Positions 10,945 through 60,688 are shown, numbered from the stretch's first letter. The stretch: 64,000 nt of DNA from an uncultured Acidobacteriota bacterium (GCA_963764025.1 CAVXRK010000004.1:586178-650177); one strand, 5' to 3'. Notes: generated by a model not told the origin, from the sequence alone. Numbers and translations are program-made.

Positions 10945-11130
10945 AACCCTCTCCCCTGAGGGGAGAGGGAAGGGTGAGGGGTTCGAAGCAAGCGCCGTCC
11001 CGGATCATTTTCTTTCGCTAGACGCGTGGGGCGCCCCTCACCCCGACCCGATACCAGCGGCTGACGCCGCTGTTGCCTGACGCCGGGGGTTTGCCTCCGG
11101 TGGACGGCTCCCGCCGGGAGAGGGGGTAGG
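10945..11130 (-). repeat. Intergenic repeat element: hairpin CCCTCTCCCC..GGGGAGAGGG plus family-B 40-nt core; homologous to 60465-60650
   Basis: The reverse complement of 11036-11128 aligns to 60463-60555 (ccctctcccggcgggagccgtccaccagaggcagaccc.cggcg.taggcaaca..ggcgt.agccg.tggtatcgggtcgggg.gagggg). Confidence 0.7.
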
Positions 11131-11196
11131 TTAGAGGCTTCGGTTGCACCATCCGATGAAAGCGGCAGTCGCGAGAATCCGCAGTCAGTCCGCGGG

Positions 11197-11763
11197 TCAG
11201 TCCAGGTTCAGCACCCTCATCGCCTCTTTCGGCTTCTCCGCCGCCGCCGGCGGCGCGGCGCGGCGGGCGGCGAGCAGGCCCGCCGTCGCCACGAGCACCA
11301 GCGCGGCGGCGGCGATCTCGAGGGAGAAGAACCCCGTCGCCAGGCGGTGGTAGCGGTCGAGAAGGATGCGGGACGGGTCGGCCGCGGGCAGGCTGTCGAT
11401 CAGGCCCGGGGCCTCCTCGCGGATCCGGTCGATCGGCGGGATCAGGAGCTGCCGGATGACGAGCGCCGCGAAGAACCCGAGGACCGGCATCCGCGTCAGC
11501 AAGGCGCGCGTCGCCTTCGGAGCGTCGCGTCGGGTCAGCAGCCAGGACGTCACGAACAGGACGCCGAAGCTCGCCTCGGCGAGCACGCACATCTTCGCGA
11601 GGATCGGGCTCTGGACCGCCGCGGCGAGGTCGCGGGTCGGCAGGACGCGGAAGACCGAGGGCGCGATGACGGCCCCGAAGAAGACGGGCGGGGCGAGGGC
11701 GAGGGCGAGCGCCGCGAGGTGGACCGTGAGGACGAGCGTGTCGAGCCGGCCGTCGGTTCTCAA
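11197..11763 (-). CDS. 4-TM membrane protein (DUF4149/TMEM205-like, tentative)
   Basis: 188-aa ORF with four hydrophobic helices (LVLTVHLAALALALAPPVFFGAVIAP; ILAKMCVLAEASFGVLFV; MPVLGFFAALVIRQLL; FFSLEIAAAALVLVATAGLLA). Confidence 0.5.
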   Translation of the reverse strand: MRTDGRLDTLVLTVHLAALALALAPPVFFGAVIAPSVFRVLPTRDLAAAVQSPILAKMCVLAEASFGVLFVTSWLLTRRDAPKATRALLTRMPVLGFFAALVIRQLLIPPIDRIREEAPGLIDSLPAADPSRILLDRYHRLATGFFSLEIAAAALVLVATAGLLAARRAAPPAAAEKPKEAMRVLNLD

Positions 11764-11764
11764 A

Positions 11765-12607
11765 CTACGAGGCCCACTCGGCCCGCACCGCCGGGGTCAG
11801 GCCCGCGGCGTGCGCCCGATCGAGGAGGGTCTGGACCGCCGTGCGTCCCGCCTCGCCGTATCCCTGCGTCCAGGCGTTGACGTACATCCCGACGAACCGG
11901 TCGGCCTTCTCCCGCGGCAGGCCCCGCGCGTACTTCATGGCGTGATCGAGGGCCGCGCCGCGGTGCGCGAGGCCGTACTCGATCGAGCGGGAGAGGGCGC
12001 GTGAGATGCGGCCGATCCGCTCGGCGCCGAGATCCCGGCGGACGACGTTGCCCCCGAGGGGAAGCGGCAGCCCGGTCTCCTCCTTCCACCAGCGGCCGAG
12101 GTCGACGATTTCCGTCAGCCCCTCGTCGCGGAAGGTGAGCTGGCCCTCGTGGATCAGCAGGCCCGCCCGCTCCCCGCCCGACGCCACGGCCTCCTGGATC
12201 CGATCGAAGGAGAGCGGCCGCATGCGCACGCCCGGCGCCCAGAGCTGGAGAGCGAGCGCCGCGGTCGTCCAGGGGCCCGGCGACGCGACGACGACGTCGC
12301 CCGCGGCGATCGCCGCGCGCTCGATGGGCTCCCGCGCGACGACGACCGGCCCGTAACCGTCGCCGAACGACGCGCCGTGGGGAAGAAGGAGGTAGCGATC
12401 GGCAAGGCGCGTGTACGCGTGGAAGGACACGGCGGTGACGGCGAGCTCCCCCGCCATCGCGCGGCGGTTGAGCGACTCGATGTCGGAGAGCTCGTGCGTG
12501 AACGCGAGGCCCTCGGTGTCGACGCGCCCCTCGGCGAGGGCGTAGAACATGAACGCGTCGTCCGAGTCGGGGCTGTGCGCGACGGTGATGGTCTCGGCGG
12601 ATGTCAC
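11765..12607 (-). CDS. MqnA/MqnD-family protein (futalosine pathway of menaquinone biosynthesis; MqnD-like)
   Basis: ITVAHSPDSDDAFMFYALAEGRVDTEG... signature. 280 aa. Stop overlaps the start of the downstream membrane protein gene. Confidence 0.65.
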   Translation of the reverse strand: MTSAETITVAHSPDSDDAFMFYALAEGRVDTEGLAFTHELSDIESLNRRAMAGELAVTAVSFHAYTRLADRYLLLPHGASFGDGYGPVVVAREPIERAAIAAGDVVVASPGPWTTAALALQLWAPGVRMRPLSFDRIQEAVASGGERAGLLIHEGQLTFRDEGLTEIVDLGRWWKEETGLPLPLGGNVVRRDLGAERIGRISRALSRSIEYGLAHRGAALDHAMKYARGLPREKADRFVGMYVNAWTQGYGEAGRTAVQTLLDRAHAAGLTPAVRAEWAS

Positions 12608-12736
12608 GGTCGGATTCTAGTCGCAGCCGGCGGCGCGCGTGCGCGTCGAGGTCGGCGAGGGAGCCGATGCGAGGCCGCGTCGCGGGTCGCGGCGAGCCCC
12701 CCGTCGGGCTCGGGAGGCGCCGCGGACGTCGCGGCG

Positions 12737-12765
12737 ACTTGACTTGCGTCCCCGCGAACGCCACA
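12737..12765 (+). promoter_or_regulatory. Putative sigma70-like promoter (TTGACT-N17-CACAAT) for the small basic peptide transcript
   Basis: ttgact tgcgtccccgcgaacgc cacaat. Followed by an approximately 220-nt lower-GC leader containing a 10-bp GC stem (aaatcgccgg...ccggcgattt, about 12826-12861). Confidence 0.35.
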
Positions 12766-12991
12766 ATGAAGTCAAGAGCGATTGCAAGGAAAAATCTTGT
12801 ACCAATGCGAGGGATGCTTCTAAAATCAAATCGCCGGCTGGGTTGCGGCCCAACCGGCGATTTTGACGAGCGTATGACCCATCAATCATTCGGCAGCGAC
12901 AGACTGAAGGCGATACGCCCTTTGACGGGGGCGGAAAAACTAGCATCTCGCCCGAAGGCTGTCAATTGGCTGTCGGGAGGGAGGTGACGTA

Positions 12992-13051
12992 ATGGCGACG
13001 AAGAAGAAGGCTGCGAAGAAAGCGAAGAAGACCACCAAGAAGAAGAAGTAA
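12992..13051 (+). CDS. Small lysine-rich basic peptide (19 aa, MATKKKAAKKAKKTTKKKK)
   Basis: Strong SD gggagggagg 6 nt upstream of the ATG. Immediately followed by an intrinsic terminator. Confidence 0.5.
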   Translation: MATKKKAAKKAKKTTKKKK

Positions 13052-13080
13052 GTCAACGACTTACGCTTCGAACACGGTTT

Positions 13081-13109
13081 CTCGGGGGCCCGCGGGCCCC
13101 CTTTTTTTT
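13081..13109 (+). terminator. Rho-independent terminator
   Basis: gggggcccgcgggccccc followed by a T-run (tttttttt). Confidence 0.8.
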
Positions 13110-13160
13110 CGCCTTGATTTTCCCCGCGAGAGGACACACTCCGGCCGAAACCCGCGCCAG

Positions 13161-13182: not shown

Positions 13183-13187
13183 TGGCC

Positions 13188-21845: not shown

Positions 21846-22068
21846 CGGGGGTATCTTAATCGGTCGCTCGACGCGACCGGACGGGAGCGGAGAGCAAGTT
21901 CGGCAAGATCGAGTGCCTCTGAGGTACCCGGCGGCCGAAGATGAGCTCAGGTTGACCTGCGGCGCACGGTGGCGCCTCCTGATCGCTGCTTCCTTCCGGA
22001 CCTGACGAGGTTCGGAGACTTCCGTCGCACAGGGCCCGAACTCATCTTCCGCCGCCGGACGGACGATT

Positions 22069-23158: not shown

Positions 23159-23350
23159 CGGGAAATACGCTATCGCGGCGGGGGGTGGTTCGGGAAATGA
23201 GATGGGCGGGTTGGGCGATTTGGACGCGGAATGGCCGGATTTGGGCGCTGATCACGCTCGTGAGACCCTGGGTCGGAACCTGACCGTCGATCGATGGCCT
23301 ACGTTTCGAACTTGGCGGTACGATGGGGGGATTACCGCCGTCCGTCGGTC

Positions 23351-23537
23351 CAAGCGTGCTCCTTAAGCCACTCGGACACCTCTCCGGGGCGGGGAATCCT
23401 ACAACACCGGCGGCAGTCCCATGCGAGTGAACGCCGCGCTCCGCGCGGCGTTGCCTACTGCCGGGGTTTGCCTCTGGTGGTCGGCTCCAAGCGTGCTCCT
23501 TAAGCCACTCGGACACCTCTCCGGGGCGCGGAATCCT
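23351..23537. repeat. Two direct 57-bp repeats (tccaagcgtgctccttaagccactcggacacctctccggggcg.ggaatcctaaca) flanking a family-B core copy
   Basis: Copies at 23351-23407 and 23481-23537. Between them, gcgttgcctactgccggggtttgcctctggtggtcggctcc is the reverse complement of the family-B motif. Confidence 0.75.
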
Positions 23538-24262: not shown

Positions 24263-24571
24263 TCAGGTCACCGAGCCCATCCGCCGCAGCGACTCGAAGG
24301 AATAGATCCCGTCGTTGTGGCCGTCGGCCCAGTCGATCTGCAGGGCGTAGGAGCCGACCCAGCGGTGGGCCGCCGCCTGGACCGAGAGTGGCGTGAGTGG
24401 TCGGTCCGGCCCGCGGTAGACCTTGCCGAAGAGGTCGGGCTCCCCCTTGCACATGGCGCACGGGCAGGCGCGGCGGAGCTTCTCGAGCGAGAGGTAGTCC
24501 TCGCGTCCGTCGTCCCAGACGATCACGAGCTCCTGGCCCAGAACCATGACCTGCTTCGGGACCGAGATCAC
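24263..24571 (-). CDS. DUF971-family small protein, GTGA-coupled to the kinase K1 stop
   Basis: (GTG)ISVPKQVMVLGQELVIVWDDGREDYLSLEKLRRACPCAMCKGEP...SYALQIDWADGHNDGIYSFESLRR. The kinase TGA and this GTG overlap in cgGTGAtc. Confidence 0.6.
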   Translation of the reverse strand: MISVPKQVMVLGQELVIVWDDGREDYLSLEKLRRACPCAMCKGEPDLFGKVYRGPDRPLTPLSVQAAAHRWVGSYALQIDWADGHNDGIYSFESLRRMGSVT

Positions 24572-27171
24572 CGAATGCCCTCGGCGAGGAAGAGGTCCGA
24601 GAGGATGCGGTTGTAGGAGTAGACGTACGCCTTCCCGTCGGGCGTCAGCGCGGGCGGCGAGAGCGTGCTGATCCCGGCGGGGTCGAGCGGAACCAGTTCC
24701 CTCCAGAGCTCGCGCTTGCCCGTGGCGAGATCGATCCGGTAGACCCGGCCCGGCAGGGCTCCCCGGTCGAAGGCGAACAGCGCGCGATCGCCGGCCCAGC
24801 CCGTCGGATCTTCCTGCGCCTCGAGGCCCGGGATCGGCGCCGGCTCGCCGCCGTCGAGCGGATACAGATAGCGCCGTCGATCGGGCCCCTGGACGGCCGC
24901 CAGTCGGCCATCGGGCGAAATGGCGCGCAGGAAGGCCCGGTAACCCGCCGGCGAGACGGCCCGCGGTTTTCCTTCGGCGCCATCGAGAAGGAACAGGCGA
25001 CTGCCCTTGCCCGGCTCGCGGGCGGTCAGGAGGATCCGCTTTCCGTCGGGAAACCACTCCGCACCCGATGCAACGAGATCCCCGGTCGGGACGGTCCTCG
25101 CTTCTCCCGCTCCGGCCGGCAGGACGACGACCTTCGGACCGGTCCCAACGTTGGTGACGCCGAGGACCCAGCGGCCGTCCGGAGAGATCGACATGGGGAC
25201 GCCCTCTCCCAACCGCACCGGGGGCGACCCGTCCATGCGCCTCAGGTAGGCCGAATAGCCGGCGCCTCCGCCCTCTCCGGACTCGACGAACACGAACGAC
25301 TTCCCGTCCGGCGAGATGTCCCGGACGCCGGACCAGTCGAGCCATGAAAGGTCCTTCTCCCGCGAGTCTCCCGGCGAGAATCCGAGGATTCCGGAGCGCA
25401 GCGTGTCGTGGGCGATGAGCACCCGCCCGTCCTTCGCGACGTCGTGCAGCGTAAGATTTCCGGTGACCCGCGCGACGACACGGTGGGCGCCGGCCCGGTT
25501 GACGGCATGGAGCGCGCGGTTTCCGCCGACATCTGCTGCCGTGAACCAGACCTCCCGGCCCCGAGGCCCCCACGCCAGACCGCCGGCCGTGGAGAATCCC
25601 GTCGCGAGCGTCTTCAACTTTCCGGAGGCGTCGACGACCGCGATCGAGCCGCCGTCGTCGCCAATGGTCGGGTGGTCGATGAAGGCGACAAGGTCCCCCG
25701 TCGGCGACACGCGCACGTTGCTGACCCAGCCCGTGGTCTCGTAAAGGACCTTGCCGACGGGATACTCGATCCGGTTCCTCGCCCCGACGAGGCGGACGAT
25801 CGCGAGGGTCTGTCCGTCCGGCGCCCAGTCCGCGAAGAGCACGTCGTCCTGGATCTCCCGGGGGGTCCCGCCGCCCGTCATCCCGATCCGCGCGAGCATC
25901 CCGCCGTACTCGAAGGGCCCGACAAAGTGGCGGTTGAGATTCACGGCCATCTCGCCCGAGGCCGAAATGGAGAGAAGGTCCGCCCCCGCCAGCCCGAAGG
26001 GCCGCGCTTCCGGGCTGTCCAGGCGGCTGACGAAGATCTCGATCGGACGGCCCTCCCAGCCCGCGGCATAGATCACTGTCTGGCCGTCGGGCGCGAACCG
26101 GGCATTCATGATCTCGCCGCGCTGGAACGTCAGCTCGCGGAAAGACGGCGGCGTAACGGTCCCCGCTTTTCTTCCGACCGCGAACGCGGCCACGCCGACC
26201 ATCGCCGCCAGAACGGCCGCGCCGAGGAGCCAGGGCCAGCGGCGCCGGCCCGAGCGCACCGCCGCCGCGGCCGCGGCCGTCTGGTCCGTCGTCGTCGAGA
26301 ACGAGGCTTCCGAGAGGTGGTCGCGCACGTCGGCGAGGTCGCGCGCCAGATCCTTCGTCGTTCCGAACCGGTCCTCGGGGTCCTTCGCGAGACAGCGCTC
26401 GACGAGCCACCGCACGGGCGACGGCACTTTCGGGTTGACCTGTCCGACGGGGTCCGGCTCTTCCCGGATGATCGCCGTCAGCGTCTCGGCGGTCGTCGAT
26501 CGCTCGAAAGCGCGCTTGCCCGTCGCGAGCTCGTAGACGATCGAGCCGAAGGAGAACTGGTCGGAGCGAAAGTCGACGACCCGTCCCGCGGCCTGCTCGG
26601 GCGACATGTAGCCGACCGTTCCCATGACCATGCCCGGCCGCGTCGGATCTCCGACCGCCGTCCTCAGGGCCGAGACCTCCTGGTCCTCCGGCGTCACGAG
26701 CTTGGCGAGGCCGAAGTCCAGGATCTTCGCGAACCCGTGCTTGGAGACCATGACGTTCTGCGGTTTGAGGTCGCGGTGCACGATTCCGGCGGCGTGGGCC
26801 GCCGCGAGGCCCTCGGCGATCTGCACCGAGATTTCGAGAAGCTTCTTGACGGGCACCGGACCGGAGGCCGAAAGGTCCTTCAGCGTCCCGCCCTCGACGA
26901 GCTCCATGGCGATGTAGATGGTCGAATCGTGGGAGCCGATGTCGTAGACGGTCAGGATGTTCGGATGCGAGAGGCCCGAAGCCGCGCGCGCCTCCCGCTC
27001 GAAGCGGGAACGCCGCTCGGGATCAGACGCGAGCTCGGGAGGCAGCACCTTGATCGCGACGTCGCGCTTGAGACGCTCGTCGCGCGCGCGGTACACCTCC
27101 CCCATCCCTCCCGCACCGATTGGCACGAGGATCTCGTAGGGGCCGAGCTTCGTTCCGGCGGCGAGCGTCAT
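24568..27171 (-). CDS. Ser/Thr protein kinase with TM helix and C-terminal TolB/PD40-like beta-propeller (K1, intact, divergent subtype)
   Basis: 867 aa. [43 protein letters not shown]...HRDLKPQNVMV..DFGLAK...GTVGYMSPEQ; TM WPWLLGAAVLAAMVGVAAFAV; then repeated ..SPDG../..PDGK.. blades. Confidence 0.9.
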   Translation of the reverse strand: MTLAAGTKLGPYEILVPIGAGGMGEVYRARDERLKRDVAIKVLPPELASDPERRSRFEREARAASGLSHPNILTVYDIGSHDSTIYIAMELVEGGTLKDLSASGPVPVKKLLEISVQIAEGLAAAHAAGIVHRDLKPQNVMVSKHGFAKILDFGLAKLVTPEDQEVSALRTAVGDPTRPGMVMGTVGYMSPEQAAGRVVDFRSDQFSFGSIVYELATGKRAFERSTTAETLTAIIREEPDPVGQVNPKVPSPVRWLVERCLAKDPEDRFGTTKDLARDLADVRDHLSEASFSTTTDQTAAAAAAVRSGRRRWPWLLGAAVLAAMVGVAAFAVGRKAGTVTPPSFRELTFQRGEIMNARFAPDGQTVIYAAGWEGRPIEIFVSRLDSPEARPFGLAGADLLSISASGEMAVNLNRHFVGPFEYGGMLARIGMTGGGTPREIQDDVLFADWAPDGQTLAIVRLVGARNRIEYPVGKVLYETTGWVSNVRVSPTGDLVAFIDHPTIGDDGGSIAVVDASGKLKTLATGFSTAGGLAWGPRGREVWFTAADVGGNRALHAVNRAGAHRVVARVTGNLTLHDVAKDGRVLIAHDTLRSGILGFSPGDSREKDLSWLDWSGVRDISPDGKSFVFVESGEGGGAGYSAYLRRMDGSPPVRLGEGVPMSISPDGRWVLGVTNVGTGPKVVVLPAGAGEARTVPTGDLVASGAEWFPDGKRILLTAREPGKGSRLFLLDGAEGKPRAVSPAGYRAFLRAISPDGRLAAVQGPDRRRYLYPLDGGEPAPIPGLEAQEDPTGWAGDRALFAFDRGALPGRVYRIDLATGKRELWRELVPLDPAGISTLSPPALTPDGKAYVYSYNRILSDLFLAEGIR

Positions 27172-27182
27172 TGGGAGCGGGG

Positions 27183-27192
27183 GGATTCTACC
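27183..27192 (-). promoter_or_regulatory. GGTAGAATCC motif (TAGAAT -10-like) 12 nt upstream of K1 ATG
   Basis: Coding-strand ggtagaatccccccgctcccaATG. The same motif recurs 10-14 nt upstream of the K3 and K7 start codons. Confidence 0.3.
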
Positions 27193-27198
27193 GGAGGC

Positions 27199-32361: not shown

Positions 32362-32387
32362 TAAGGCGGCAGGATTCTAACCGCGAA

Positions 32388-37553: not shown

Positions 37554-37698
37554 CGCACTTTCTGCCCGTCATTCCGAGGAGCGAAGCGACGAGGAATCCC
37601 GCGCTCGACGCGCCGCCGGGTGGTCCGAGCCCGGGATGCCTCGCTGCGCTCGGCATGACGGCGAGTGTCGAGAATCAATTTCAACCCTTCTAACCGAC

Positions 37699-40270: not shown

Positions 40271-40271
40271 T

Positions 40272-40480
40272 TCAGATTCCGGGTCCAGTAAAGAGTCGAG
40301 AGAACAGAGTGAACCCCAACGTCATCGTTTTCCCGTCGGGCGTGACGCGTGCCGAACCACGGGCTGTCATGCCGGCGAGGTCAGTGGCAGACAGGTCGCG
40401 AACGTGCGTTCGAGCTCCGGAGACGATGTCGAACGAGTGAACGAGCGACTTGCCTTCCCATTTGCCGCCGAGGCAAACGC
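40272..40480 (-). pseudogene. 3' remnant (last ~70 codons) of a further kinase-propeller paralog
   Basis: ..[56 protein letters not shown] resembles the K6 C-terminus (..LIDIASGRRTRVRELSG..VRVTPDGRTVIVG..LSTLYQVKNLK). Its stop lies 1 nt before the K6 ATG. Confidence 0.55.
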
Positions 40481-40585
40481 CGGTCTGACGACCGGCGTCA
40501 AGCTCGGCGTCGCCTCCGGCAGGCGGTCTGCCTTCGGTGGCCGGCTCCACGGTCCGCGAAGCGGACCGCTAGAGGTCCGTGCCAT

Positions 40586-43165: not shown

Positions 43166-43230
43166 GAAAGCTGGCGCGATTCTACCCGCAGTCGTGGCGT
43201 ATTCTTGCGCCGCTTCCAAGAGAGGTGAAC

Positions 43231-51561: not shown

Positions 51562-51638
51562 GCGCCCATAGCTCAATTGGATAGAGCGTCTGACTACGGA
51601 TCAGGAGGTTGGGGGTTCGACTCCCTCTGGGCGCACCA
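51562..51638 (+). tRNA. tRNA-Arg (anticodon ACG)
   Basis: gcgcccatagctcaattggatagagcgtctgaCTACGGAtcaggaggttgggggttcgactccctctgggcgcacca. Acceptor gcgccca/tgggcgc. Anticodon loop ctACGga. CCA encoded. Confidence 0.9.
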
Positions 51639-51693
51639 CTTCGAACTGGAGTAGCCTCCCCGCGATGTCTTTCACGACCAGGACCGCCGTTTC

Positions 51694-52122
51694 ATGGCCG
51701 AGGCCCTGGCCTTCGCCCGGATCGCCTACGCCGAGCAGGAGGTCCCGATCGGGGCAGTCGTCGTCCGGGGCGGCCGGATGATCGGCCGGGGGCGCAACCG
51801 GCGCGAACGGCTGGCCGACCCGACCCACCACGCCGAGATCGAGGCCATCCGGGAGGCCGCCCGGGAAGTCGGCCACTGGCGCCTCGAGGATTGCACTCTC
51901 TACGCCACCCTGGAGCCCTGCCCGATGTGCGCCGGCGCCGCGGTCAACGCCCGGATCCGCCGGATCGTCTTCGGTTGCACGGACCCCAAGGCCGGATACT
52001 GCGGGACCCTCGGCAACATCCCGGGAGACGCGCGGCTGAACCACCGACCCCAGGTCGAGGGAGGACTGCTGGCCGAAGAGTCGGCCGACATGCTCAAACA
52101 GTTCTTCCAGGCGAAACGCTGA
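51694..52122 (+). CDS. tadA: tRNA-specific adenosine deaminase TadA
   Basis: MAEALAFARIAYAEQEVPIGAVVVRGGRMIGRGRNRRE...HAEIEAIREAAR...TLYATLEPCPMCAGA (HAE and PCxxC zinc motifs). Confidence 0.85.
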   Translation: MAEALAFARIAYAEQEVPIGAVVVRGGRMIGRGRNRRERLADPTHHAEIEAIREAAREVGHWRLEDCTLYATLEPCPMCAGAAVNARIRRIVFGCTDPKAGYCGTLGNIPGDARLNHRPQVEGGLLAEESADMLKQFFQAKR

Positions 52123-53174: not shown

Positions 53175-53619
53175 CTAGGATGCGCCCCTTCCACCCGAGC
53201 GGAGAGGTGCTGGAGTGGTTGATCAAGCCGGTCTCGAGCCGACCACCGACCCGACCACCGAAGGCAGGCCCCCGGCAGTAGGGAACGCCGTGCGAAGCAC
53301 GGCGGTTTCGGCAGACCCCCAGCAGTAGGCAGCGTCGCGCGAAGCGCGGCGCTTACGCGGTAGGCCCGACCGGGCTGCCACTTTCAGCGCACCTGACATC
53401 GCGCCCCGATTCCGCTAGGATTCGCCGTCCCACCCGCGCGGAGAGGTGCTGGAGTGGTTGATCAGGCCGGTCTCGAGCCGACCACCAGAGGCAGACCCCC
53501 GGCAGTAGGCAGCGTCGCGCGAAGCGCGGCGCTTACCCGGTAGGCCCGACCGGGCTGCCACTTTCAGCGCACCTGACATCGCGCCCGGATTCCGCTAGGA
53601 TTCGCCGTCCCACCCGCGC
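53175..53619 (+). repeat. Tandem repeat (units of about 239 and 180 bp) duplicating the upstream region plus the first 37 nt of tRNA-Ser, each fused at the anticodon loop to a family-B-containing ~100-bp element
   Basis: cgctagga...ccacccg.gcGGAGAGGTGCTGGAGTGGTTGATCA.GCCGGTCTCGA|gccgaccacc..cagtaggcagcgtcgcgcgaagcgcggcgcttac.cggtaggcccgaccgggctgccactttcagcgcacctgacatcgcgccc.gattc occurs twice (5' halves begin at 53201 and 53440) before the complete tRNA at 53620. Confidence 0.85.
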
Positions 53620-53709
53620 GGAGAGGTGCTGGAGTGGTTGATCAGGCCGGTCTCGAAAACCGGTAGGCCCGAAAGGGTCTCGTGGGTTCAAATCCCACCC
53701 TCTCCGCCA
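53620..53709 (+). tRNA. tRNA-Ser (anticodon CGA), class II with long variable arm
   Basis: ggagaggtgctggagtggttgatcaggccggtCTCGAaaaccggtaggcccgaaagggtctcgtgggttcaaatcccaccctctccgcca. Confidence 0.9.
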
Positions 53710-53881
53710 TTAATGCTGCCTCGAGACAGTCGTGGGTTCACCCGACCACCAGCGGCAGACCCCCGGCCGTAGGGAGCCGACCAGCGGAGATCCACCCCCC
53801 GGCCGTAGGCAACGCTGGTCCGAAGGCCAGCGGTAACCCACGCTGCGCGCAGCGCAGCGGTAAATCCCACCCTCTCCGCCA
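53710..53881 (+). repeat. Downstream repeat block: two family-B cores and a duplicated 3' end of tRNA-Ser (att-like)
   Basis: ..gaccaccagcggcagacccccggccgtaggg.. and ..caccccccggccgtaggcaac.. followed by aaatcccaccctctccgcca (53862-53881), identical to the last 20 nt of the tRNA. Confidence 0.75.
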
Positions 53882-53967: not shown

Positions 53968-54207
53968 TCATGCTTGCGGATCTCGACATCGCGATCCTTC
54001 GGCGGGGCGCTGCGTCACCCACCCATGGACCAGGCGCTCGGCCGCCGCAGCGACCTCGTCCACCGTGCGATGGAACAACGCTTCATTGGCGCGCGAGGGT
54101 TTGTTGGCCCCGCTCAGCTTGCGGACGAACTGAAGCGAGGAGGCTCGGATCTCGGCCGCGGTGGCCGGGGGCGCGAAGTTGGCCAGGGTACGGATGTTGC
54201 GGCACAT
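53968..54207 (-). CDS. DUF2277-family small protein
   Basis: MCRNIRTLANFAPPATAAEIRASSLQFVRKLSGANKPSRANEALFHRTVDEVAAAAERLV... (MCRNI.TL.NF.PPAT signature). Confidence 0.7.
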   Translation of the reverse strand: MCRNIRTLANFAPPATAAEIRASSLQFVRKLSGANKPSRANEALFHRTVDEVAAAAERLVHGWVTQRPAEGSRCRDPQA

Positions 54208-54299
54208 GCGTCCAGACTAACCCAGCCCCCCGGGGACGGCTGGTGTCCGACTTTCCTTAAACCCCGCCCCAAGGAATCCGTAATAATCCGCGAGCCCCC

Positions 54300-55226
<927 letters not shown>

Positions 55227-55233
55227 GGCCCGA

Positions 55234-56558
55234 ATGAACTGGAAGAAGACCTTCGCGATCGTCCGGCGGGAGTACATCGAGCGTGTCCGCACGAAGTCGT
55301 TCTGGATCGCGACGCTCCTCATCCCCTTCCTCTTCCTCGCGTACATCGCGTTCCAGATCTCCTCGTCCCGCAAGACCGGCGGCGAGCGGACGATCGTCGT
55401 CGTCGACCAGACCGGCACGCTCTACGCCCCGCTCGAGAAGGAGCTCGCGGCGACCGAAGCCGAACAACAGGCGAAGGGCTCCGGAAACAAGGGGCCGCAC
55501 TGGAACCTGAAGCCCGCAGCGGCCGGCGGAGATCTCGAGGCGACGAAGGAAGGCTTCGCCAGCAGGTGCTCGCGAAGAAGATCAACGGCTACCTGGTCCT
55601 CGAGCCGCAGAAGATCAAGAACGACGAGGTCGAGTACTACTCGACGACGGTCTCGGACTTCATCGCCTTGAACCAGCTCGAACGCTCCCTCAACCGCGTG
55701 CGGATGCGCGAGAAGATGCAGGACCGCGGTCTGCCGACGGATCTCGCCGGCGAGCTCGAGAAGCGCGTCGACTTCAAGGCGTTCAAGGTGACCGAGAAGG
55801 GCACCTCCGAGGAGAAGGGAGCCGGCATCATCGCCGCGATCATTTTCATGGTCCTGATGTACACGACCTTCTTCGTGTACGGCGGCCAGGTCATGCGCGG
55901 CGTCATCGAGGAGAAGTCGAGCCGGATCGTCGAGATCATCATCGCTTCCGTGCGGCCGACCGAGCTCATGCTCGGCAAGATCATCGGCATCGGTCTCGTC
56001 GGCCTGACGCAGTACCTGGTCTGGTCGATTCTCGCGATGAACCTGTCGCTCCCCGGAATCGCCACCGTCCTCTCGTCGAGCGACATGGGCGTTCCCCGGA
56101 TCCCGGTCGCGATGCTCGGCTACTTCATCCTGTTCTTCGTGCTCGGCTACTTCGTCTACGCCAGCGTCTACACGACGATCGCGGCGCCGTTCAACAGCGA
56201 GCAGGAAGCCACGCAGTTCATGATGATCCCGATCGTCCTCATCCTCGCCGGCTTCATGGTGTACCCGGCCGTGATGAACAACCCCAACGGCAACGTGGCG
56301 CTCTTCTTCTCCCTCTTCCCCTTCACGTCCTCGCTCGTCATGTTCCTGCGAACGGCCGTCTCCGAGCCCCCCGCCTGGCAGGTCCTGCTGTCGATCTTTC
56401 TTCTGATCGCGACGACGGTCGGCCTCGCCTGGTTCGCCGGCCGCGTCTACCGCGTCGGCATCCTCATGTACGGCAAGAAGCCCACGATCCCCGAGATCCT
56501 CCGGTGGGTGCGGTACACCCCCGGCAAGGTCGCCCAGCCGGCGGCGAAGGCGCCGTAG
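55234..56558 (+). pseudogene. ABC-2 family (NatB-like) transporter permease with a 1-bp frameshift near 55558
   Basis: 145-aa N-terminal ORF (MNWKKTFAIVRREYIERVRTKSFWIATLLIPFLFLAYIAF...EATKEGFAS) then a frame change to ..QVLAKKINGYLVLEPQKI..(6 TM)..VGILMYGKKPTIPEILRW. Confidence 0.75.
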
Positions 56559-56626
56559 GAAGGGCACGGGGGGGGGCACCGGGTTGCCCCTTTCGCCTTG
56601 CCTGTGCTAACTTCCGCGCCCCGTTC

Positions 56627-56701
56627 GGCCCATTCGTCTAACGGTTAGGACGCGGCCCTCTCAAGGCCGAAATACGGGTTCGATTCCCGTATGGGCTACC
56701 A
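56627..56701 (+). tRNA. tRNA-Glu (anticodon CTC)
   Basis: ggcccattcgtctaacggttaggacgcggccctCTCaaggccgaaatacgggttcgattcccgtatgggctacca. Confidence 0.85.
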
Positions 56702-56729
56702 CGATCTCCCGGCGCGATAAGTTGGGCGC

Positions 56730-56823
56730 CGCGTCCTACGGACGCAGCCCTCTCAAGGCGGCATCCTCTGTACCGCGCGCCCTTCCGGGCGCGACACGGG
56801 TTCGACTCCCGTGGGGGCTACCA
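56730..56823 (+). pseudogene. tRNA-like sequence / pseudo-tRNA: tRNA-Glu anticodon and 3' portion with an inserted GC hairpin, no matching 5' acceptor strand
   Basis: ggacgcagccctctcaaggc matches the tRNA-Glu D/anticodon region. A hairpin ccgcgcgcccttccgggcgcg follows, then acacgggttcgactcccgtgggggctacca (T-arm, 3' acceptor, CCA). Upstream lacks the complementary agccccc. Confidence 0.45.
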
Positions 56824-56875
56824 CTCAAATCAAAGGCCTTAGCCTCGCGCTCGGCCTCCCCTTGCATGTTGGCAA

Positions 56876-56901
56876 TCCGTGCGCTATATACTGAACTATA
56901 T
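56876..56901. promoter_or_regulatory. 26-bp near-perfect palindrome (tatactgaactatatggttcagtata) overlapping the ArsR start, putative autoregulatory operator; TATACT -10-like
   Basis: ArsR/SmtB regulators bind 12-2-12 inverted repeats at their own promoters. Confidence 0.45.
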
Positions 56902-57265
56902 GGTTCAGTATACGCGGGCCTGCCTCGATGCCTCGTTCGCCGCGCTCTCGGACGCCACCCGACGCGGCGTTCTGGAGCAGCTCGGCCGTTCCGACGCTTC
57001 GATCACGGACCTTGCCGAGAGGTTCCACATGACCCTCACGGGCATGAAGAAGCACGTCGGCGTCTTGGAGCAGGCCGGGCTCGTCGCCACGGAAAAGGTC
57101 GGGCGCGTGCGGACCTGCAAGATCGGCCCGCGCCGATTGGAGGAAGAGACGGCCTGGATCGAGAGGTATCGCCAGCTTTGGGACGCACGCTTCGACGAGT
57201 TGGACAAGGTTGTCGAGGAATTGAAACGGAAGGAGAAGGTCGATGGACGCAAGAAGAGAGAGTGA
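56900..57265 (+). CDS. ArsR/SmtB-family transcriptional regulator
   Basis: MVQYTRACLDASFAALSDATRRGVLEQLGRSDASITDLAERFHMTLTGMKKHVGVLEQAGLVATEKVGRVRTCKI (HTH). Confidence 0.8.
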   Translation: MVQYTRACLDASFAALSDATRRGVLEQLGRSDASITDLAERFHMTLTGMKKHVGVLEQAGLVATEKVGRVRTCKIGPRRLEEETAWIERYRQLWDARFDELDKVVEELKRKEKVDGRKKRE

Positions 57266-57275
57266 GGTTGCCCCC

Positions 57276-57758
57276 ATGAAGAACCGTACGACGGTGGAGC
57301 GGAAGTCCGAGCGTGAGCTCGTCGTCACGCGAACTTTCAACGGCCCGGCGCGCCTCGTGTTCGAGGCGTGGACCAAGCCCGAGCTGTTCAGGCAGTGGTG
57401 GGTGCCGAAGTCGATGGGAATGTCCCTGCTTTCCTGCGAAATGGATGTTCGTGTCGGGGGCAGGTACCGTTTGGAGTTCGCACACGGGGACTCACAGTCG
57501 GCGTTCTTCGGCACGTACAAGGAAGTAACACCGCACTCGCGCCTCGTCTGGACCAATGAGGAAAGTGACGAGGGTTCCGTCACGACGGTGACCTTCGCGG
57601 AAAAAGGCGGCAAGACGTTGCTGGTCATGCACGAGCTTTATCCCTCGAAGGAAGCTCTCGACGCCGCCGGCACCGGGGCGGCGGATGCGATGGGAGAGAC
57701 GTTCGAGCAACTGGACGAGCTTCTCGTCACCCTGGGCGCGAGCGTGGGACGGTCATGA
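57276..57758 (+). CDS. SRPBCC/AHSA1-family protein (activator of Hsp90 ATPase homolog-like)
   Basis: SD agagagagtgagg. MKNRTTVERKSERELVVTRTFNGPARLVFEAWTKPELFRQWWVP......HGDSQSAFFGTYKEVTPHSRLVWT. Confidence 0.75.
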   Translation: MKNRTTVERKSERELVVTRTFNGPARLVFEAWTKPELFRQWWVPKSMGMSLLSCEMDVRVGGRYRLEFAHGDSQSAFFGTYKEVTPHSRLVWTNEESDEGSVTTVTFAEKGGKTLLVMHELYPSKEALDAAGTGAADAMGETFEQLDELLVTLGASVGRS

Positions 57759-58165
57759 AGTCGTCGACTTCCGGTCCGCCGCCTGGCTCATTCGTTCTAA
57801 CTTCGGTCCCTCGTGGCACACCCATAAGCGAGTGGGCAATCGGTCCTCATGGCTGACCTCGCGCGCTGCTTGCCCCGGCCGGCATGGCTCACATGCAGGC
57901 CGGGGCTACCGGGCCGCGCCGTGAAAATTCGACGATGACGTTCTCGATCGGGGCGCCCTCGACGTGGGCCGTCTTGACTCGCCTCCTTGGTCCCACGACC
58001 CTGCTTCGGCAACGACCTGCTCCGGTTCTCGGTCCGTCCGGCGCCCCCCGAAGTCACGGGGGGCGCCGGCATCACCATCCGCGCACGCGTAGCAAGACTT
58101 GGGATCAAGCGGCGCGAAGCGACTCGAGATCCCGCAGGAACTGGGCCAGCTGGTTCCATGTAGGG

Positions 58166-58180
58166 CCCGTATGGGCTACC
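58166..58180 (+). other. 15-nt direct repeat of the tRNA-Glu 3' end (cccgtatgggctacc), att-like island boundary
   Basis: Identical to 56686-56700 within tRNA-Glu. Lies 1.46 kb downstream of it. Confidence 0.55.
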
Positions 58181-58249
58181 GCTTCCAGCCGGCTTTGTCA
58201 GCGATCGCTGCGTCCTGGGACGCGCCGAGCATTAGCGTCGTGAGCGCGG

Positions 58250-59608
58250 TCAGAACTCGCGTGGCAGGTCCATTTTTTTCAGGCGATCGTCAAATCGCGG
58301 ATCATCGCGCAGGCCGTCCCAATCCGGTGCGACCGCCAGGTGAACCAGTGCCGGGTCGCGCTGCGCGATGGCCTGATCAAGGCAGTCGAACGCTTCATCG
58401 AGCCGGCCTGCTGCCCCATAAATTCTGGCGCGGAAGAATGGCATCTTGAGCAACACGTCGAAGTCCAGCTGCGGGTTCGGGATTTGTTCCACCCAGAATC
58501 GGTTCACTCCGGAGAGGCCGGCAGTCGCGTACACCTGCTGCGCGTCCGCGGTGACCTGCTTCAACACCGCCACCATCTCTTCGGGTAATCCGAACTCGAT
58601 AGCCACGCTGACGGCCCAGGCGGCGAATCGATTGATGTCCCCGATCTTCAAATAGACGTAACTAATGAATTGGCACGCCTGCGCATGCTTTGGGTTGACG
58701 TCAATCGCTCGCTGGGCCCAGACAAGCGCGTCGGCGTACTTCCGCTGATTCCAATACGAGATGGCGATCTGCAGCAGAACGCCGGGCGATCGCGGATCGC
58801 GCGCGAGCGCCTGTTGCTTCGAACGCAGCCCATCGTCGAGCCGCCCAAGCGCTTCCTGGAGCGACCCATACTGCAGGAGCGCCTCGGTGTGATCCGGATT
58901 GATTTCGAGCGCATGGCGCAGGCTGCGCTCCGCCGCCGTCCAGTCCCACTCGCTGAGAAAAAGGACCGTGCCAAGGGCTACCTGCGCGTCCGCCGAGGCG
59001 CTGTCCATCGCCAGCGCGCGTAAGGCAGACGCCTTCGCCTCTGCAAACGCTTCCTGGTGCGGCACCGCGTGAGACGCTGCGAGCACGCACCGTGCGCGCG
59101 CCAGCCCGGCGTGCGCCGGCGCATAGGTCGGATCGATCTCGATCGCGGAACGAAAGGCGTCCACGGCGGCCGGCAGTTCGAAAAACGAGTCAGACAACAG
59201 GTGAGAGCGGCCGCGGCCGACAAGCTCGTAAAGTTCGACGGGTCGCGCCACGGCGCTCGATGCGAATGGCTTCTCGTCGTCCGAATCAAACCTGACTGCA
59301 GCGATGAAGCGGTACCCGGACCCCGCCACCGTTTCGATATAGATCGGCCGGTGGGCGTCCTCGTGAAGCGCCTTGCGCAGCGCCGACATGTGAACCGTGA
59401 GACCGCCTTCTTCGACGAATGACTCGGGCCAGATGCGCTTCAGCAATTCGTCCTTCGTGACCAGGCGGCCCCGCTGCTGCACCAACGCAACCAGCACATC
59501 GTAGGCCTTCGGTGACACGCGGACGACTTCCGCGCCGCGCAGGAGACGCCGCTCTCGCACGTCGAGCGTGAACTCGTCGAAATGAAATACCTCACTGCTG
59601 GTGGCCAT
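58250..59608 (-). CDS. Winged-helix (OmpR/CadC-type trans_reg_C) DNA-binding domain plus TPR-repeat regulator; lower-GC gene
   Basis: MATSSEVFHFDEFTLDVRERRLLRGAEVVRVSPKAYDVLVALVQQRGRLVTKDELLKRIWPESFVEEGGLTVHMSALRKAL.. then multiple TPR-like helices. Visibly more AT-rich than its surroundings. Confidence 0.7.
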   Translation of the reverse strand: MATSSEVFHFDEFTLDVRERRLLRGAEVVRVSPKAYDVLVALVQQRGRLVTKDELLKRIWPESFVEEGGLTVHMSALRKALHEDAHRPIYIETVAGSGYRFIAAVRFDSDDEKPFASSAVARPVELYELVGRGRSHLLSDSFFELPAAVDAFRSAIEIDPTYAPAHAGLARARCVLAASHAVPHQEAFAEAKASALRALAMDSASADAQVALGTVLFLSEWDWTAAERSLRHALEINPDHTEALLQYGSLQEALGRLDDGLRSKQQALARDPRSPGVLLQIAISYWNQRKYADALVWAQRAIDVNPKHAQACQFISYVYLKIGDINRFAAWAVSVAIEFGLPEEMVAVLKQVTADAQQVYATAGLSGVNRFWVEQIPNPQLDFDVLLKMPFFRARIYGAAGRLDEAFDCLDQAIAQRDPALVHLAVAPDWDGLRDDPRFDDRLKKMDLPREF

Positions 59609-59693
59609 CAGATTTCGGCGAATCTTAGCAAATCCTTAAGGACGCGTCACGGCCGGGACAGCTGTCATGAACGCGCTTTCAAAGGAGAAGAAA

Positions 59694-60229
59694 ATGAGCA
59701 TCCGATCGTCAGCCGCCGTCATTCTGATCTGCGGATTCACAGCACTCTCACTCGCACAAGCCCCACCAGAGCCCCCGAAGCCCGGCCCCGAGCACAAGAA
59801 GTTGGAGTACTTCGTTGGCACTTGGAGAATGGAAGGCGAGATTAAAGCCGAACGACGTATATGCCGGCCGGTAAGAGTGTCATCACCCCAACATATACAT
59901 TGGGTCCGGGGGGATTCTTTGTCGAGTTCCGCGGTGAAGGGGAAAATTACCCGACGACCCACGGAATCATGGCCTACGACAGCCAGGCGAAGCTCTACAC
60001 ACAATTTTACGCGAGCAGTGCCGGACTCATGGGTGGCGGCACAGCAACGGTTGACGGAAACACCTGGACGTGGATGCTTGAAGACAAGTGGGTTGGCAAA
60101 GCATTCAAAGGAAGAACGACAGTCACCGTCAAATCGGCCTCTCAGTTCACGGCCAAGTATGAATATCTCGACCCGAACGGCAGTTATGTAACGCTCGCAG
60201 AAGGCACCGCCACCAAAGTCGCGCCTTAG
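59694..60229 (+). pseudogene. DUF1579-family secreted protein, 1-bp deletion near 59853
   Basis: SD aaaggagaag. MSIRSSAAVILICGFTALSLAQA signal. ..KLEYFVGTWRMEGEIKAE then frame change to ..TTYMPAGKSVITPTYTLGPGGFFVEFRGEGEN... Confidence 0.6.
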
Positions 60230-60392
60230 AGACGCAGGCACCGCCGTTCGAAGTGGAGCAGAACCTGGTCCTCGCCCTCGACGCGAAGCGGGCTCGCCTC
60301 CCGGATCCGGACTTGGCGTCGATCCGAACCAGCTTCTCGACGCCTGCAGCGAGGTCTAGCAGGGGTTCACGGCGCTCCTGGAGCACGGCTTT

Positions 60393-60688
60393 CTAGGTGT
60401 GATTTCTCAACACGTTGTTCACGGCCACGGATCGCGGCTGGGCGGCCTTTTTCCCCCTCTCCCGGCGGGAGCCGTCCACCAGAGGCAGACCCACGGCGGT
60501 AGGCAACACCGGCGTGAGCCGGTGGTATCGGGTCGGGGCGAGGGGAACTCCTCGCTCGATCTGCCCACAACGCTCCTCATCTGGCCCGAGGTCCCAACCC
60601 CCTCACCCTGCCCTCTCCCCCTTTCGGGGGGAAGGGTTCTCCTATTTGACGTTCACCGGTGAACAACGTCCTGAGAAACGACACCTAG
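60393..60688. mobile_element. 296-bp non-autonomous MITE-like element bounded by ~30-bp imperfect terminal inverted repeats, carrying a family-B core and a CCCTCTCCCC hairpin
   Basis: Left ctaggtgtgatttctcaacacgttgttcac versus reverse complement of right ctaggtgtcgtttctcaggacgttgttcac (26/30). Interior 60463-60650 is homologous to 10945-11130 (reverse complement). Confidence 0.5.

Follow-up and report, generated by a model that had tools for sequence, protein, structure and literature searches.

The window analysed here, a 64,000-nt stretch of DNA from an uncultured Acidobacteriota bacterium, carries dispersed copies of a short repeat, family B. The preliminary description counted at least eight copies, and a profile made from the copies of relatives recovers nine. 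The earlier consensus matches three sites at three or fewer mismatches (0 expected from shuffles), and its core matches seven (0.02 expected). The sites first given are correct, but their coordinates are offset by approximately 8 nt at 23.4 kb and approximately 17 nt at 60.5 kb, where the true box is 60469-60507. All copies are intergenic, as had been proposed, each lying outside ORFs with coding-like GC3:

11050-11110, minus strand (profile match 11066-11110): B module with box 11110-11072, hairpin AGCGGC-GTCA-GCCGCT and tail GGTATC
23421-23487, minus strand (profile match 23421-23488): B module directly 3' of the anticodon of a tRNA-Ser(GGA) 5' fragment
40462-40547, minus strand (profile match 40493-40548): B module absent from the preliminary list, with a second hairpin nested in its hairpin loop
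53248-53309, plus strand: full B module in the array of tRNA-Ser(CGA) fragment no. 1
53310-53357, plus strand (profile match 53310-53362): partial, 5'-truncated B module in the same array
53474-53536, plus strand (profile match 53474-53543): B module after the anticodon of tRNA-Ser(CGA) fragment no. 2
53738-53785, plus strand: B module in the T loop of the 3' unit at tRNA-Ser(CGA)
53775-53838, plus strand: B module in the T loop of the same 3' unit
60469-60529, plus strand: B module inside host repeat (b), within a composite unit at 60453-60640

The B module is 65-70 nt long and consists of a 39-nt box (GAGCCGACCACCRRAGGCARACCCCCGGCAGTAGGCAAC), a hairpin and a short tail. The GC-rich hairpin that had been described as a neighbour of the repeat is present, but it is part of the repeat itself, the final three bases of the box already opening it. 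The layout is a conserved unstructured box (GAGCCGACCACC-RRA-GGCARACCCCCGGCA), GTAG-GC, a 10-bp GC hairpin and a tail GKTMAY. The hairpin covaries strongly (changes on both sides in 8 of 10 pairs, 92.6% of cells paired, a result reached by 0 of 500 shuffles) and is under selection. All 16 T-G wobbles in it run the same way, which suggests that a single strand is the functional one. No covariation was found in the candidate helix of the box, and the box shows no covarying structure; its 28-nt unstructured part is almost invariant across approximately 38 species, including positions outside the search pattern (CCG before the box, GTAGG after it). G31 T32 A33 G34 precede the stem by 2 nt and are each invariant or conserved to at least 90%, a degree of conservation that partly reflects the choice of seeds, filtered for [AT]AGG. 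Terminal inverted repeats are lacking in B, whose ends (GAGCCGACC and GGTAAC) do not complement each other, and neither filled and empty copies of host repeat (a) nor the tRNA loop junctions show a short target-site duplication. The bases 5' of B vary, and apart from loop context and GA/A microhomology the target is not fixed. Copies stand alone or, commonly, in head-to-tail arrays; of 146 copies, a single pair (L047) is inverted. The 40.5-kb module, which lies just past the stop of a Ser/Thr kinase gene (40586-43627), has a DNA fold of -30.7 kcal/mol (z -4.8).

Five copies cluster at a tRNA-Ser locus, as first reported, and the gene is tRNA-Ser(CGA). What had not been recognised is that these five, like the copy at 23.4 kb, interrupt partial copies of tRNA-Ser genes, entering right after the anticodon or within the T loop. 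The tRNA-Ser(CGA) locus comprises:

53201-53237, plus strand: 5' fragment no. 1 (tRNA nt 1-37, one mismatch), with the ancestral upstream flank kept
53236-53357, plus strand: B array at the anticodon-loop position of fragment no. 1 (duplicated head GCCGACCACC, one full and one 5'-truncated module), followed by tRNA nt 42-53 at 53358-53369
53440-53476, plus strand: 5' fragment no. 2 (nt 1-37, identical), with a promoter-like site upstream (53393-53421) and tRNA nt 41-53 (53537-53549) after its B module
53310-53656, plus strand: 180-bp tandem duplication (53310-53476 = 53490-53656, 98% identical), one unit being B, hairpin, tRNA nt 41-53, approximately 20 nt, promoter and tRNA nt 1-37
53620-53709, plus strand: the only intact tRNA-Ser(CGA), with a promoter-like site upstream (53573-53601)
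53730-53881, plus strand: 3' unit, consisting of the T-arm 5' part (53730-53740, tRNA nt 61-71), two B modules and two hairpins in the T loop (53741-53861), and the T-arm 3' part, acceptor and CCA (53862-53881, tRNA nt 71-90)

An ortholog of the 3' unit occurs twice in the related locus L038, and the numbers of units at orthologous tRNA-Ser(CGA) loci differ among the window, L044 and L038. A tRNA intron was considered and rejected, because the interrupted copies of the window retain just a part of the tRNA (nt 1-37 with nt 41-53, or else nt 61-90) and never offer two complete exons; there was also no match to a group I intron.

The tRNA-Ser(GGA) locus at 23.4 kb contains two further partial copies:

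23486-23522, minus strand: 5' fragment running through the anticodon (nt 1-37) and preceded by a TAGGAT-type region of its own, identical at 37 of 37 positions to the intact gene of the syntenic locus L081
23313-23385, minus strand: dead third copy, consisting of nt 1-37 (23385-23349), a 15-nt B remnant CCGACGGACGGCGGT (23348-23334), and the T-loop 3' part with a degenerate acceptor (23333-23313)

L081 has its intact tRNA-Ser(GGA) at the position of the dead copy, and ARAGORN and Rfam find no tRNA at 23313-23385. The intact tRNA-Ser(GGA) has evidently been lost from this site in the window.

Outside tRNA genes, B is hosted by other palindromic repeats. The non-tRNA units of the window are:

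10945-11126, minus strand: composite unit of approximately 190 nt, host repeat (b) CCCCCTCTCCCGGCGG ... GGGGTGAGGGG ... CCCCTCACCC around the 11-kb B module
37567-37660, plus strand: empty copy of host palindromic repeat (a), GTCATTCCGAGGAGCGAAGCGACGAG / GAATCCCG...CTCGGCATGAC, the slash marking the point at which relatives have a B module
60393-60422 and 60659-60688: 30-nt inverted repeats around the 60-kb composite unit, 87% complementary and unique to that site

The conservation of about 190 bp noted between the 11-kb and 60-kb copies stands as to extent (approximately 200 nt, 85% column identity), but not for the middle 50 nt, which are poorly conserved; the alignment runs for 93 nt at 90%, through the weak middle, into a CCCTCACCC/CCCTCTCCCC hairpin region. 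The 11-kb unit, between the stop of a DUF4149 gene (11197) and the end of a convergent gene (10921), ends in a terminator-like hairpin (CCCTCTCCCC-TCA-GGGGAGAGGG) followed by T6. Filled and empty versions of host repeat (a) place the insertion between GCGAG and GGATCCC, with no duplication. B has been seen in the D, anticodon and T loops of tRNA gene copies and at their 3' end, in the middle of the palindromes of at least three further repeat families, and in the loop of its own hairpin. Generic tests of whether flanks pair across B are barely above controls, so a hairpin-loop rule holds for these named host classes and not for each copy.

The idea that the motif might be missing from relatives, and thus a local duplication only, does not apply: family B occurs in related genomes of at least approximately 38 species, with at least 137 copies in at least 103 loci from at least approximately 38 Acidobacteriota/Thermoanaerobaculia MAGs, and also in soil metagenomes. 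Matches in other phyla (12-13 among the matches listed) are to the box pattern only, without the remainder of the module, and phage, plasmid and viral collections gave no B module. By these sequence comparisons, family B is a lineage-wide DNA repeat of the class Thermoanaerobaculia, soil Acidobacteria. The 11-kb unit is absent from the same spacer of L117, where a neighbouring protein is 98% identical, which argues for a recent gain; the spacer without B is 71 nt in L117, 19 nt in L118 and 3 nt in L120. B lies beside gene 3' ends more than 5' ends (approximately 95 : 46). Its orientation relative to genes, raised as a question by the preliminary description, is not fixed and is more often antisense to the gene whose 3' end adjoins. 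The strand of B shows no significant association with local GC skew (odds ratio 1.9, p 0.15).

Among relatives, B-interrupted partial copies are found at all four tRNA-Ser genes and also at Arg(TCT), Met and Ala, with an intact tRNA gene nearly always alongside. A 5' flank of at least 10 nt is shared with a predicted tRNA by 24 of 132 B modules versus 24 of 660 control positions, and 23 of these tRNA-flanked modules are in sense orientation and 1 in antisense; approximately 80% of modules lie outside tRNA contexts. Junctions fall at tRNA nt 36-37, 70-71, 57-61 and 19-21 and at the 3' end, and 26 of 29 metagenome matches to TCGA+B are in tRNA loops. The first two bases of B (GA) coincide with the last two anticodon bases of NGA (Ser) anticodons; in L127 and L144 an intact T loop reads TTCAAAT and the fragment TTC-GAGCCG, so that GA belongs to B. 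B is bracketed by direct repeats of tRNA-gene segments (38-90 nt), inverted 3' tRNA fragments were counted 18 times upstream of the gene and never downstream, and in L025 an intact tRNA gene is nested within a B hairpin loop.

No match to E. coli RayT or IS608 TnpA was found in 7889 ORFs from the window and approximately 0.95 Mb of B-bearing loci, a sample in which only one or two RAYT/IS200 genes are expected. Y1_Tnp was not among the recurrent Pfam families of 150 ORFs near B, and an integrase turned up neither in the window ORFs tested nor in the families that recur near B. Since no mobility gene recurs near B, the module is regarded as non-autonomous. In the window, only SRP RNA and three tRNAs pass Rfam gathering thresholds; an Rfam search gave no match to B and nothing relevant at E up to 10 around the copies.

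Of the three suggestions in the preliminary description, "REP/MITE-like element" comes closest, B being a GTAG-headed GC palindrome with a conserved 5' box that is dispersed, intergenic, lineage-wide and polymorphic among near-identical genomes, but B is not a classical MITE, since it has neither terminal inverted repeats nor a short target duplication, and with a single inverted pair it is not a REPIN. Our preferred reading, held tentatively and at somewhat less than even confidence, takes B for a REP-like element with a GTAG head, non-autonomous and strand-specific, whose targets are single-stranded hairpin loops, those of tRNAs included. An enzyme with its gene at another place in the genome, most plausibly an HUH/Y1 transposase of the RAYT/IS200 kind, would copy B as single-stranded DNA and insert it, with no terminal inverted repeats and no short target duplication, where other hairpin-forming DNA has unpaired loops. 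Only insertions in dispensable partial tRNA gene copies would persist. Direct repeats of B and tRNA segments would then drive unequal recombination, which would make unit numbers differ between genomes and may have deleted the intact tRNA-Ser(GGA) at 23.4 kb. Simple insertion of B does not account for the long direct repeats of tRNA segments, the 18:0 bias of inverted fragments or the nesting in L025, and further points against the REP-like reading are that B has one hairpin only and a 28-nt 5' box without counterpart in described REPs, that inverted pairs are all but absent, that the searched ORFs gave no RAYT/IS200 homologue, that the strand does not follow GC skew significantly, and that the generic flank-pairing tests barely exceed controls.

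The "recombination site" of the preliminary description stays a rival because the junctions at the anticodon loop, T loop and 3' end are exactly the three tRNA sublocations of integrases. B would then be the footprint of a tyrosine recombinase acting at tRNA loops and 3' ends, in miniature integrase-less (CIME-like) units of B plus a tRNA-segment copy, with the intact gene regenerated and tandem units formed by accretion. The long S-B-S direct repeats, as at att sites, and the almost invariable retention of an intact gene suit this, as does tRNA-Ser(CGA), where the first interrupted unit has the ancestral upstream flank and the intact gene a variant promoter, as though the 5' part had been brought in. 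We nevertheless consider it unlikely, given the large majority of modules outside tRNA contexts, tRNA sequence on either side of B without a duplicated core, units of 130-180 bp that are far below the size of any known integrative element, the lack of a recurrent integrase gene near B, and no copy found in phage, plasmid or viral collections. Replication that stalls at stable hairpins (tRNA arms, palindromic repeats), with a microhomology-guided nascent strand switching template to B and back, would need no dedicated enzyme, in keeping with none having been found, and would make B a templated insertion at junctions of tandem or inverted duplications. It would explain why each junction shows microhomology of 1-3 nt (GA at the left one, the A/AA of the tail with the loop at the right one), as well as the position of B exactly at tandem duplication junctions, hairpins nested inside hairpin loops and inverted partial copies adjoining tRNA genes; yet passive filler should decay, whereas the 28-nt box is almost invariant, the orientation is nearly always sense and many copies lack duplicated flanks, so that this account seems improbable.

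Equally hard to favour is a function of B's own, as an RNA or a protein-binding DNA site (for example a 3'-end stabiliser, a terminator, or a site for a nucleoid or stable-RNA regulatory protein), with the 5' units giving small transcripts that fuse a tRNA half to B. Strong conservation of the box between species, wobble pairs confined to one strand, the majority of copies adjoining gene 3' ends, promoter-like sites upstream of the 5' units, and the terminator-like hairpin with its T run at 11 kb are all compatible with such a role; the failure to match Rfam, the mixed, more often antisense gene orientation and the lack of covarying structure in the box speak against it, and with it against the small RNA family suggested earlier. 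Differences in the presence of B between near-identical genomes, and in its copy number at orthologous loci, also count against such a role. There is, lastly, a small chance that B marks an undescribed mobility mechanism aimed at single-stranded tRNA gene loops, with an enzyme distinct from the known RAYTs and integrases. Every event would deposit B together with a copy of the adjoining tRNA segment (promoter and 5' half, or T arm and acceptor) and always regenerate the intact gene, which would account for direct upstream, direct downstream and inverted upstream copies, the consistent absence of inverted downstream copies, and a whole tRNA gene nested in a B hairpin loop.

The REP-like reading places B with the GTAG superfamily of REPs, which it fits because GTAG stands 5' of the stem and because some GTAG families are themselves found within palindromes (T. 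roseum GTAG-23, A. variabilis GTAG-15; PMC3733652). No GTAG REPs were reported from Acidobacteriota in that survey (PMC3733652). Like B, GTAG REP/RAYT elements (REPtrons, REPINs) are built on a short (20-40 bp) GC-rich palindrome; an unpaired GTAG (GTRG) head, set off from the stem by two bases, precedes it, and a short tail follows. They are also alike in being dispersed and extragenic and in having G-T pairs on one strand, and the position near gene 3' ends that is usual for these high-copy REPs is the commoner one among the sampled copies of B. B differs in its additional, nearly invariant 28-nt 5' box, in its singletons and head-to-tail arrays versus the inverted dimers of classical REPs, among which head-to-tail order is rare, and, unlike REPtrons, in having no flanked RAYT gene in the window or the B-bearing loci. 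Insertion into tRNA gene loops has not been described for REPs.

The BIMEs (bacterial interspersed mosaic elements) of enterobacteria (PMC2817692) are mosaics of a REP-type hairpin with other conserved motifs and repeats, and the 190-nt units of the window at 11 and 60 kb have the same mosaic character. BIMEs have alternating REP orientations, and their motif set and organisation are unlike B. IS200/IS605 elements and their miniature derivatives (PATEs) are like B in that they lack terminal inverted repeats, do not duplicate their target, carry a sub-terminal hairpin, insert in a strand-specific way and prefer single-stranded targets. They differ in carrying hairpins at both ends and in requiring a fixed tetra- or pentanucleotide on the 5' side of the insertion, whereas B has one hairpin, in its 3' part, no fixed target, and no TnpA found in the window or B-bearing loci.

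Next to an intact gene, integrative elements leave partial tRNA copies that break off in the anticodon loop, in the T loop or at the 3' end and can form tandem arrays (PMC9897764), and three tRNA sublocations used by integrases are given there after Williams 2002 (as cited in PMC9897764). Such att remnants, accretion arrays and CIMEs have the break points and the tRNA-segment direct repeats in common with B. The units of B, in contrast, are 130-180 bp with no island and no integrase found, include 5' fragments with their own promoters besides 3' fragments, and have tRNA sequence on both sides of an insert that also occurs at many non-tRNA sites. In Thermoproteales (archaea), work by Fujishima et al. 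in 2010 reportedly described similar short inserts, mobile tRNA introns, at several tRNA gene loop positions. Those introns sit in genes that are complete and functional, and their splicing takes place at bulge-helix-bulge motifs, whereas B, in a bacterial host, interrupts truncated copies that stand beside an intact one.

The dispersed repeat family B is confirmed. The 39-nt consensus of the preliminary description matches three sites in the window at <=3 mismatches (0 in 100 shuffles) and its 22-nt core matches seven (0.02 expected), and a profile built from relatives identifies nine copies, including one at 40.5 kb that had been overlooked. The sites first reported are real, with positions slightly off at 23.4 kb and 60.5 kb, and every copy is located outside ORFs with coding-like GC3, in agreement with the claim that the family is intergenic.

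Copies of family B in the window, located by the profile
11066-11110, minus strand, B copy
23421-23488, minus strand, B copy
40493-40548, minus strand, B copy, previously overlooked
53248-53309, B copy
53310-53362, B copy, 5'-truncated
53474-53543, B copy
53738-53785, B copy
53775-53838, B copy
60469-60529, plus strand, B copy

In an alignment of 67 modules from the window and its relatives, B has four elements: the conserved box GAGCCGACCACC-RRA-GGCARACCCCCGGCA; GTAG plus two bases; a 10-bp stem, whose first bases are the last three of the earlier consensus (AAC...GTT); and the tail GKTMAY. The 28-nt 5' box is nearly invariant and mostly open in folds, and a candidate 4-bp helix within it has no covariation at all. 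The stem is clearly under selection: 92.6% of its cells are paired and both-sided changes occur at 8 of the 10 pairs, values reached by none of 500 shuffles, and slid controls fall to 27-54% paired. One pair shows 16 T-G wobbles, all in a single direction, and thus one strand of B is the functional strand. In the 40.5-kb copy, as in relatives, a second hairpin is nested within the loop of the first. Integron attC sites, dif/Xer sites and domain V of group II introns, compared by inspection through their consensus sequences, do not fit.

A core-pattern scan of one genome per species returned at least 116 stretches, 103 of them with the whole module. Among the matches listed, these 103 loci come from ~38 assemblies and are labelled Acidobacteriota or Thermoanaerobaculia, with the sole exception of a 2.4-kb contig binned as Elusimicrobiota; the 12-13 listed matches in other phyla consist of the box only, and several are clearly within coding sequence. 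Large contigs with B include CAWCPN010000002.1 (4.1 Mb), CAVTEW010000003.1 (3.2 Mb) and CAVZNW010000002.1 (2.7 Mb), and the family also occurs in soil metagenomes (MFD and Ga0 samples). Viral contigs, phages and plasmids gave no match to B. Because the distribution is lineage-wide, the family is not a local duplication only, a reading that the preliminary description had tied to absence from relatives.

The copies near 53 kb are arranged around a tRNA-Ser(CGA) gene.

Features of the tRNA-Ser(CGA) locus
53201-53237 and 53440-53476, copies of tRNA-Ser(CGA) nt 1-37, upstream of the intact gene
53620-53709, tRNA-Ser(CGA), the only intact copy at the locus
53730-53740 and 53862-53881, T arm of tRNA-Ser(CGA), repeated 3' of the intact gene, with two B modules and two hairpins in its loop

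In both copies of nt 1-37, B starts directly after the third anticodon base, and is followed by tRNA nt 41-53 and then, ~20 nt further on, by another copy of the promoter region; the last two units are a 180-bp tandem duplication (98% identity). The first interrupted unit has kept the ancestral upstream flank, and a variant promoter is found at the intact gene. The 23.4-kb locus (minus strand) has two copies of nt 1-37 of tRNA-Ser(GGA), the first followed by B and the second by a remnant of B (15 nt), then the 3' portion of the T arm and a degenerate acceptor; tRNA prediction at this locus found none. The syntenic locus L081 of a relative has the same two 5' units (copies of nt 1-37 with B) and then an intact tRNA-Ser(GGA) gene, from which we conclude that the gene has been lost in the window genome, most simply by recombination between flanking B copies. 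The interrupted tRNA copies are truncated, which rules out a split tRNA or a tRNA intron.

The window also has other features. A bacterial small SRP RNA (Rfam RF00169, 68 bits) is located at 21942-22041 on the minus strand, and a tandem array at 24500-43650 consists of genes for Ser/Thr protein kinase paralogues (Pkinase; PD40 repeats in some), with ~800-bp blocks 80-88% identical between neighbours. At 51562-52122, a tadA-like gene for a tRNA adenosine deaminase (MafB19-deam/dCMP_cyt_deam_1) comes directly after tRNA-Arg(ACG), a pairing also present in L044 and L071. At 56627-56823, an incomplete second copy stands after tRNA-Glu(CTC). It comprises the anticodon arm, T arm, acceptor and CCA, and has the same design as the tRNA-Ser fragments with a different insert: 36 nt without the B box, at the variable-loop position, with the GC hairpin GCGCGCCC-TTCC-GGGCGCGC. 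Over 16 nt, the T arm of tRNA-Glu is repeated at 60741-60756, and a similar motif occurs at ~61736 on the minus strand. From 54000 to 62000 the GC content drops from ~0.70 to 0.62-0.64; this region may be a decayed island at tRNA-Glu, and no integrase was seen among its tested ORFs.

The association with tRNA genes recurs in relatives: with Ser(CGA) in L044, L038 and L071, with Ser(GGA) in L081, L025, L083 and L089, with Ser(GCT) in L051 (no anticodon-loop copy of B was seen at this tRNA), with Met in L018 and L063, inside the D loop of Ser(TGA) in L012 and L072, and after the CCA of Ala in L043. A metagenome scan for TCGA followed by B gave 29 matches, of which 26 are in tRNA T or anticodon loops, Arg(TCT) included; a tRNA is predicted on 22 of the 27 contigs, and it is mostly the intact cognate of the fragment. 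The 5' flank shares 10 nt or more with a predicted tRNA in 24 of 132 modules, versus 24 of 660 random positions drawn from those loci; 23 modules are sense and one antisense, and the junctions cluster at nt 36-37, 70-71, 57-61, 19-21 and the 3' end. A predicted tRNA is no more than 600 nt away from 62 of 183 modules, which lie downstream on the same strand (25), upstream on the same strand (19) or inverted upstream (18); none of the 62 is inverted downstream. The leading GA belongs to B, as L127 and L144 show, where the T loop is TTCAAAT in the intact gene and TTC-GAGCCG in the fragment; in NGA anticodon loops this GA overlaps the anticodon. L025 has a double nesting: the loop of a B hairpin contains an intact tRNA-Ser(GGA) together with its promoter, and this B in turn occupies the T loop of an outer copy that is interrupted twice.

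Approximately a quarter of the modules are inserted at a constant position in the long palindromic repeat GTCATCCCGAG...CTCGGGATGAC, between GCGAG and GGATCCC, with no duplication and 0-2 nt lost (34 filled arms versus ~70 without B). The window contains an empty copy of this repeat:

37567-37660, empty copy of the palindromic repeat GTCATYCCGAG...CTCGGSATGAC, which is abundant in related genomes and often hosts B there

In L039 (7149-7400), a tandem 21-nt unit (GTCATCCCGAGCCCAACAGCC) is derived from an arm of the same repeat. Further hosts are the hairpin GGGCGGCC-GCAA-GGGCCGCCC and a C-rich/G-rich repeat at 11 and 60 kb. The extended conservation reported for the 11-kb and 60-kb units holds over a ~200-nt alignment with 85% column identity, except in a poorly conserved 50-nt middle. 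The 60-kb unit is bracketed by 30-nt inverted repeats (60393-60422 and 60659-60688, 87% complementary) with no other copy in the window or fetched loci. Flank pairing across B (longest complementary word 6.97 nt versus 6.37 in controls) and enclosing pairs in folds around B (13.5 versus 11.0) are weak tests in 70% GC DNA; as both are barely above controls, the loop rule is claimed for the named host classes only. In L028 and L129 (similarly L032, L070, L100, L101 and L113), B lies between tandem duplicated gene starts or ends, for example recurring ATGGCCGCCCGGCTTCGCGACGAGATCCGCGG starts and ends of the ...CTGCAGTAA type, and is thus tied to local duplications outside tRNA loci too.

Filled and empty sites can be compared directly. 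Behind the DUF4149 gene, the window has a 275-nt spacer with the composite unit (the repeat enclosing B). The spacer at this site measures 71 nt, without B, in L117 (98%-identical protein), 19 nt in L118 and 3 nt in L120. Orthologous Ser(CGA) loci differ in their units: 5' units and 3' units (T-arm/acceptor copies interrupted by B) are both present in the window, only the former in L044 and only the latter in L038. No gene family recurs next to B, nor does a transposase or integrase; ORF clustering (116 loci) and Pfam annotation of the 150 ORFs nearest B returned housekeeping genes only, so that B is not the end of an insertion sequence or island. Searches with phmmer of 7889 ORFs with E. coli RayT (NC_000913) and IS608 TnpA gave nothing below E = 6. 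Since no mobility gene recurs near B, the module is non-autonomous, and its enzyme, if any, is encoded elsewhere.

The best explanation, advanced tentatively, is that B may have spread by REP-like single-strand (HUH/Y1) transposition, which would give its lack of terminal inverted repeats and target duplication, as well as its strand specificity and liking for unpaired loops. The strand of B has no significant relation to local GC skew, a measure of replication-strand bias. Simple insertion gives no account of the 38-90-nt direct repeats of tRNA-gene segments that flank B while the intact gene is kept, or of the recurrent inverted 3' fragment upstream of the promoter, and the nesting of an intact tRNA gene in a B hairpin loop in L025 goes beyond it. 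These features, with the flank and promoter pattern at Ser(CGA), keep three rivals alive.

That the modules are integrase-type miniature units is unlikely; Pfam found neither transposase nor integrase in the 20 window ORFs near B copies. Replication template switching at hairpins with microhomology is still less probable. A functional RNA or protein-binding site is an equally doubtful proposition: Rfam has no family for B, at gathering thresholds over the whole window or at E up to 10 around the copies, and orientation relative to genes is not fixed, results that also tell against the earlier suggestion of an sRNA family and a role as RNA in fixed orientation to genes.

Small palindromic repeats are common, and the spread and host-genome effects of very few families are settled. 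Family B is an unusually readable record: its fixed 5' box makes copies easily recognised, comparison with tRNA sequences fixes its insertion points to the exact base, and filled and empty sites are available in related repeats and near-identical genomes. Across an abundant, uncultured soil class, it appears to reshape the loci of tRNA genes; it multiplies promoter-bearing tRNA halves and, in this window, has destroyed one tRNA-Ser gene. If duplication of the tRNA segment is part of the insertion event, this would be a novel means for an element to exploit tRNA genes and yet leave them intact. In Acidobacteriota MAGs, the tRNA fragments with B will mislead both tRNA annotation and genome binning.

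The preliminary reading of B as REP/MITE-like is partly right, in that its REP-like features match the GTAG REP superfamily: a GTAG head, a GC palindrome, two spacer bases and a tail, one-strand wobble, and perhaps location near gene 3' ends. Some described REP families are likewise found inside other palindromes (PMC3733652). Unlike described REPs, B has a nearly invariant 28-nt 5' box, forms head-to-tail arrays instead of inverted dimers, has no RAYT located in the window or fetched loci, and sits in tRNA gene loops. The literature on REP/MITE insertion in tRNA genes and on Thermoanaerobaculia repeats, as far as searched, does not describe the family. B is REP-like, and its association with the loops of tRNA genes throughout an entire bacterial class is unusual and hitherto undescribed.
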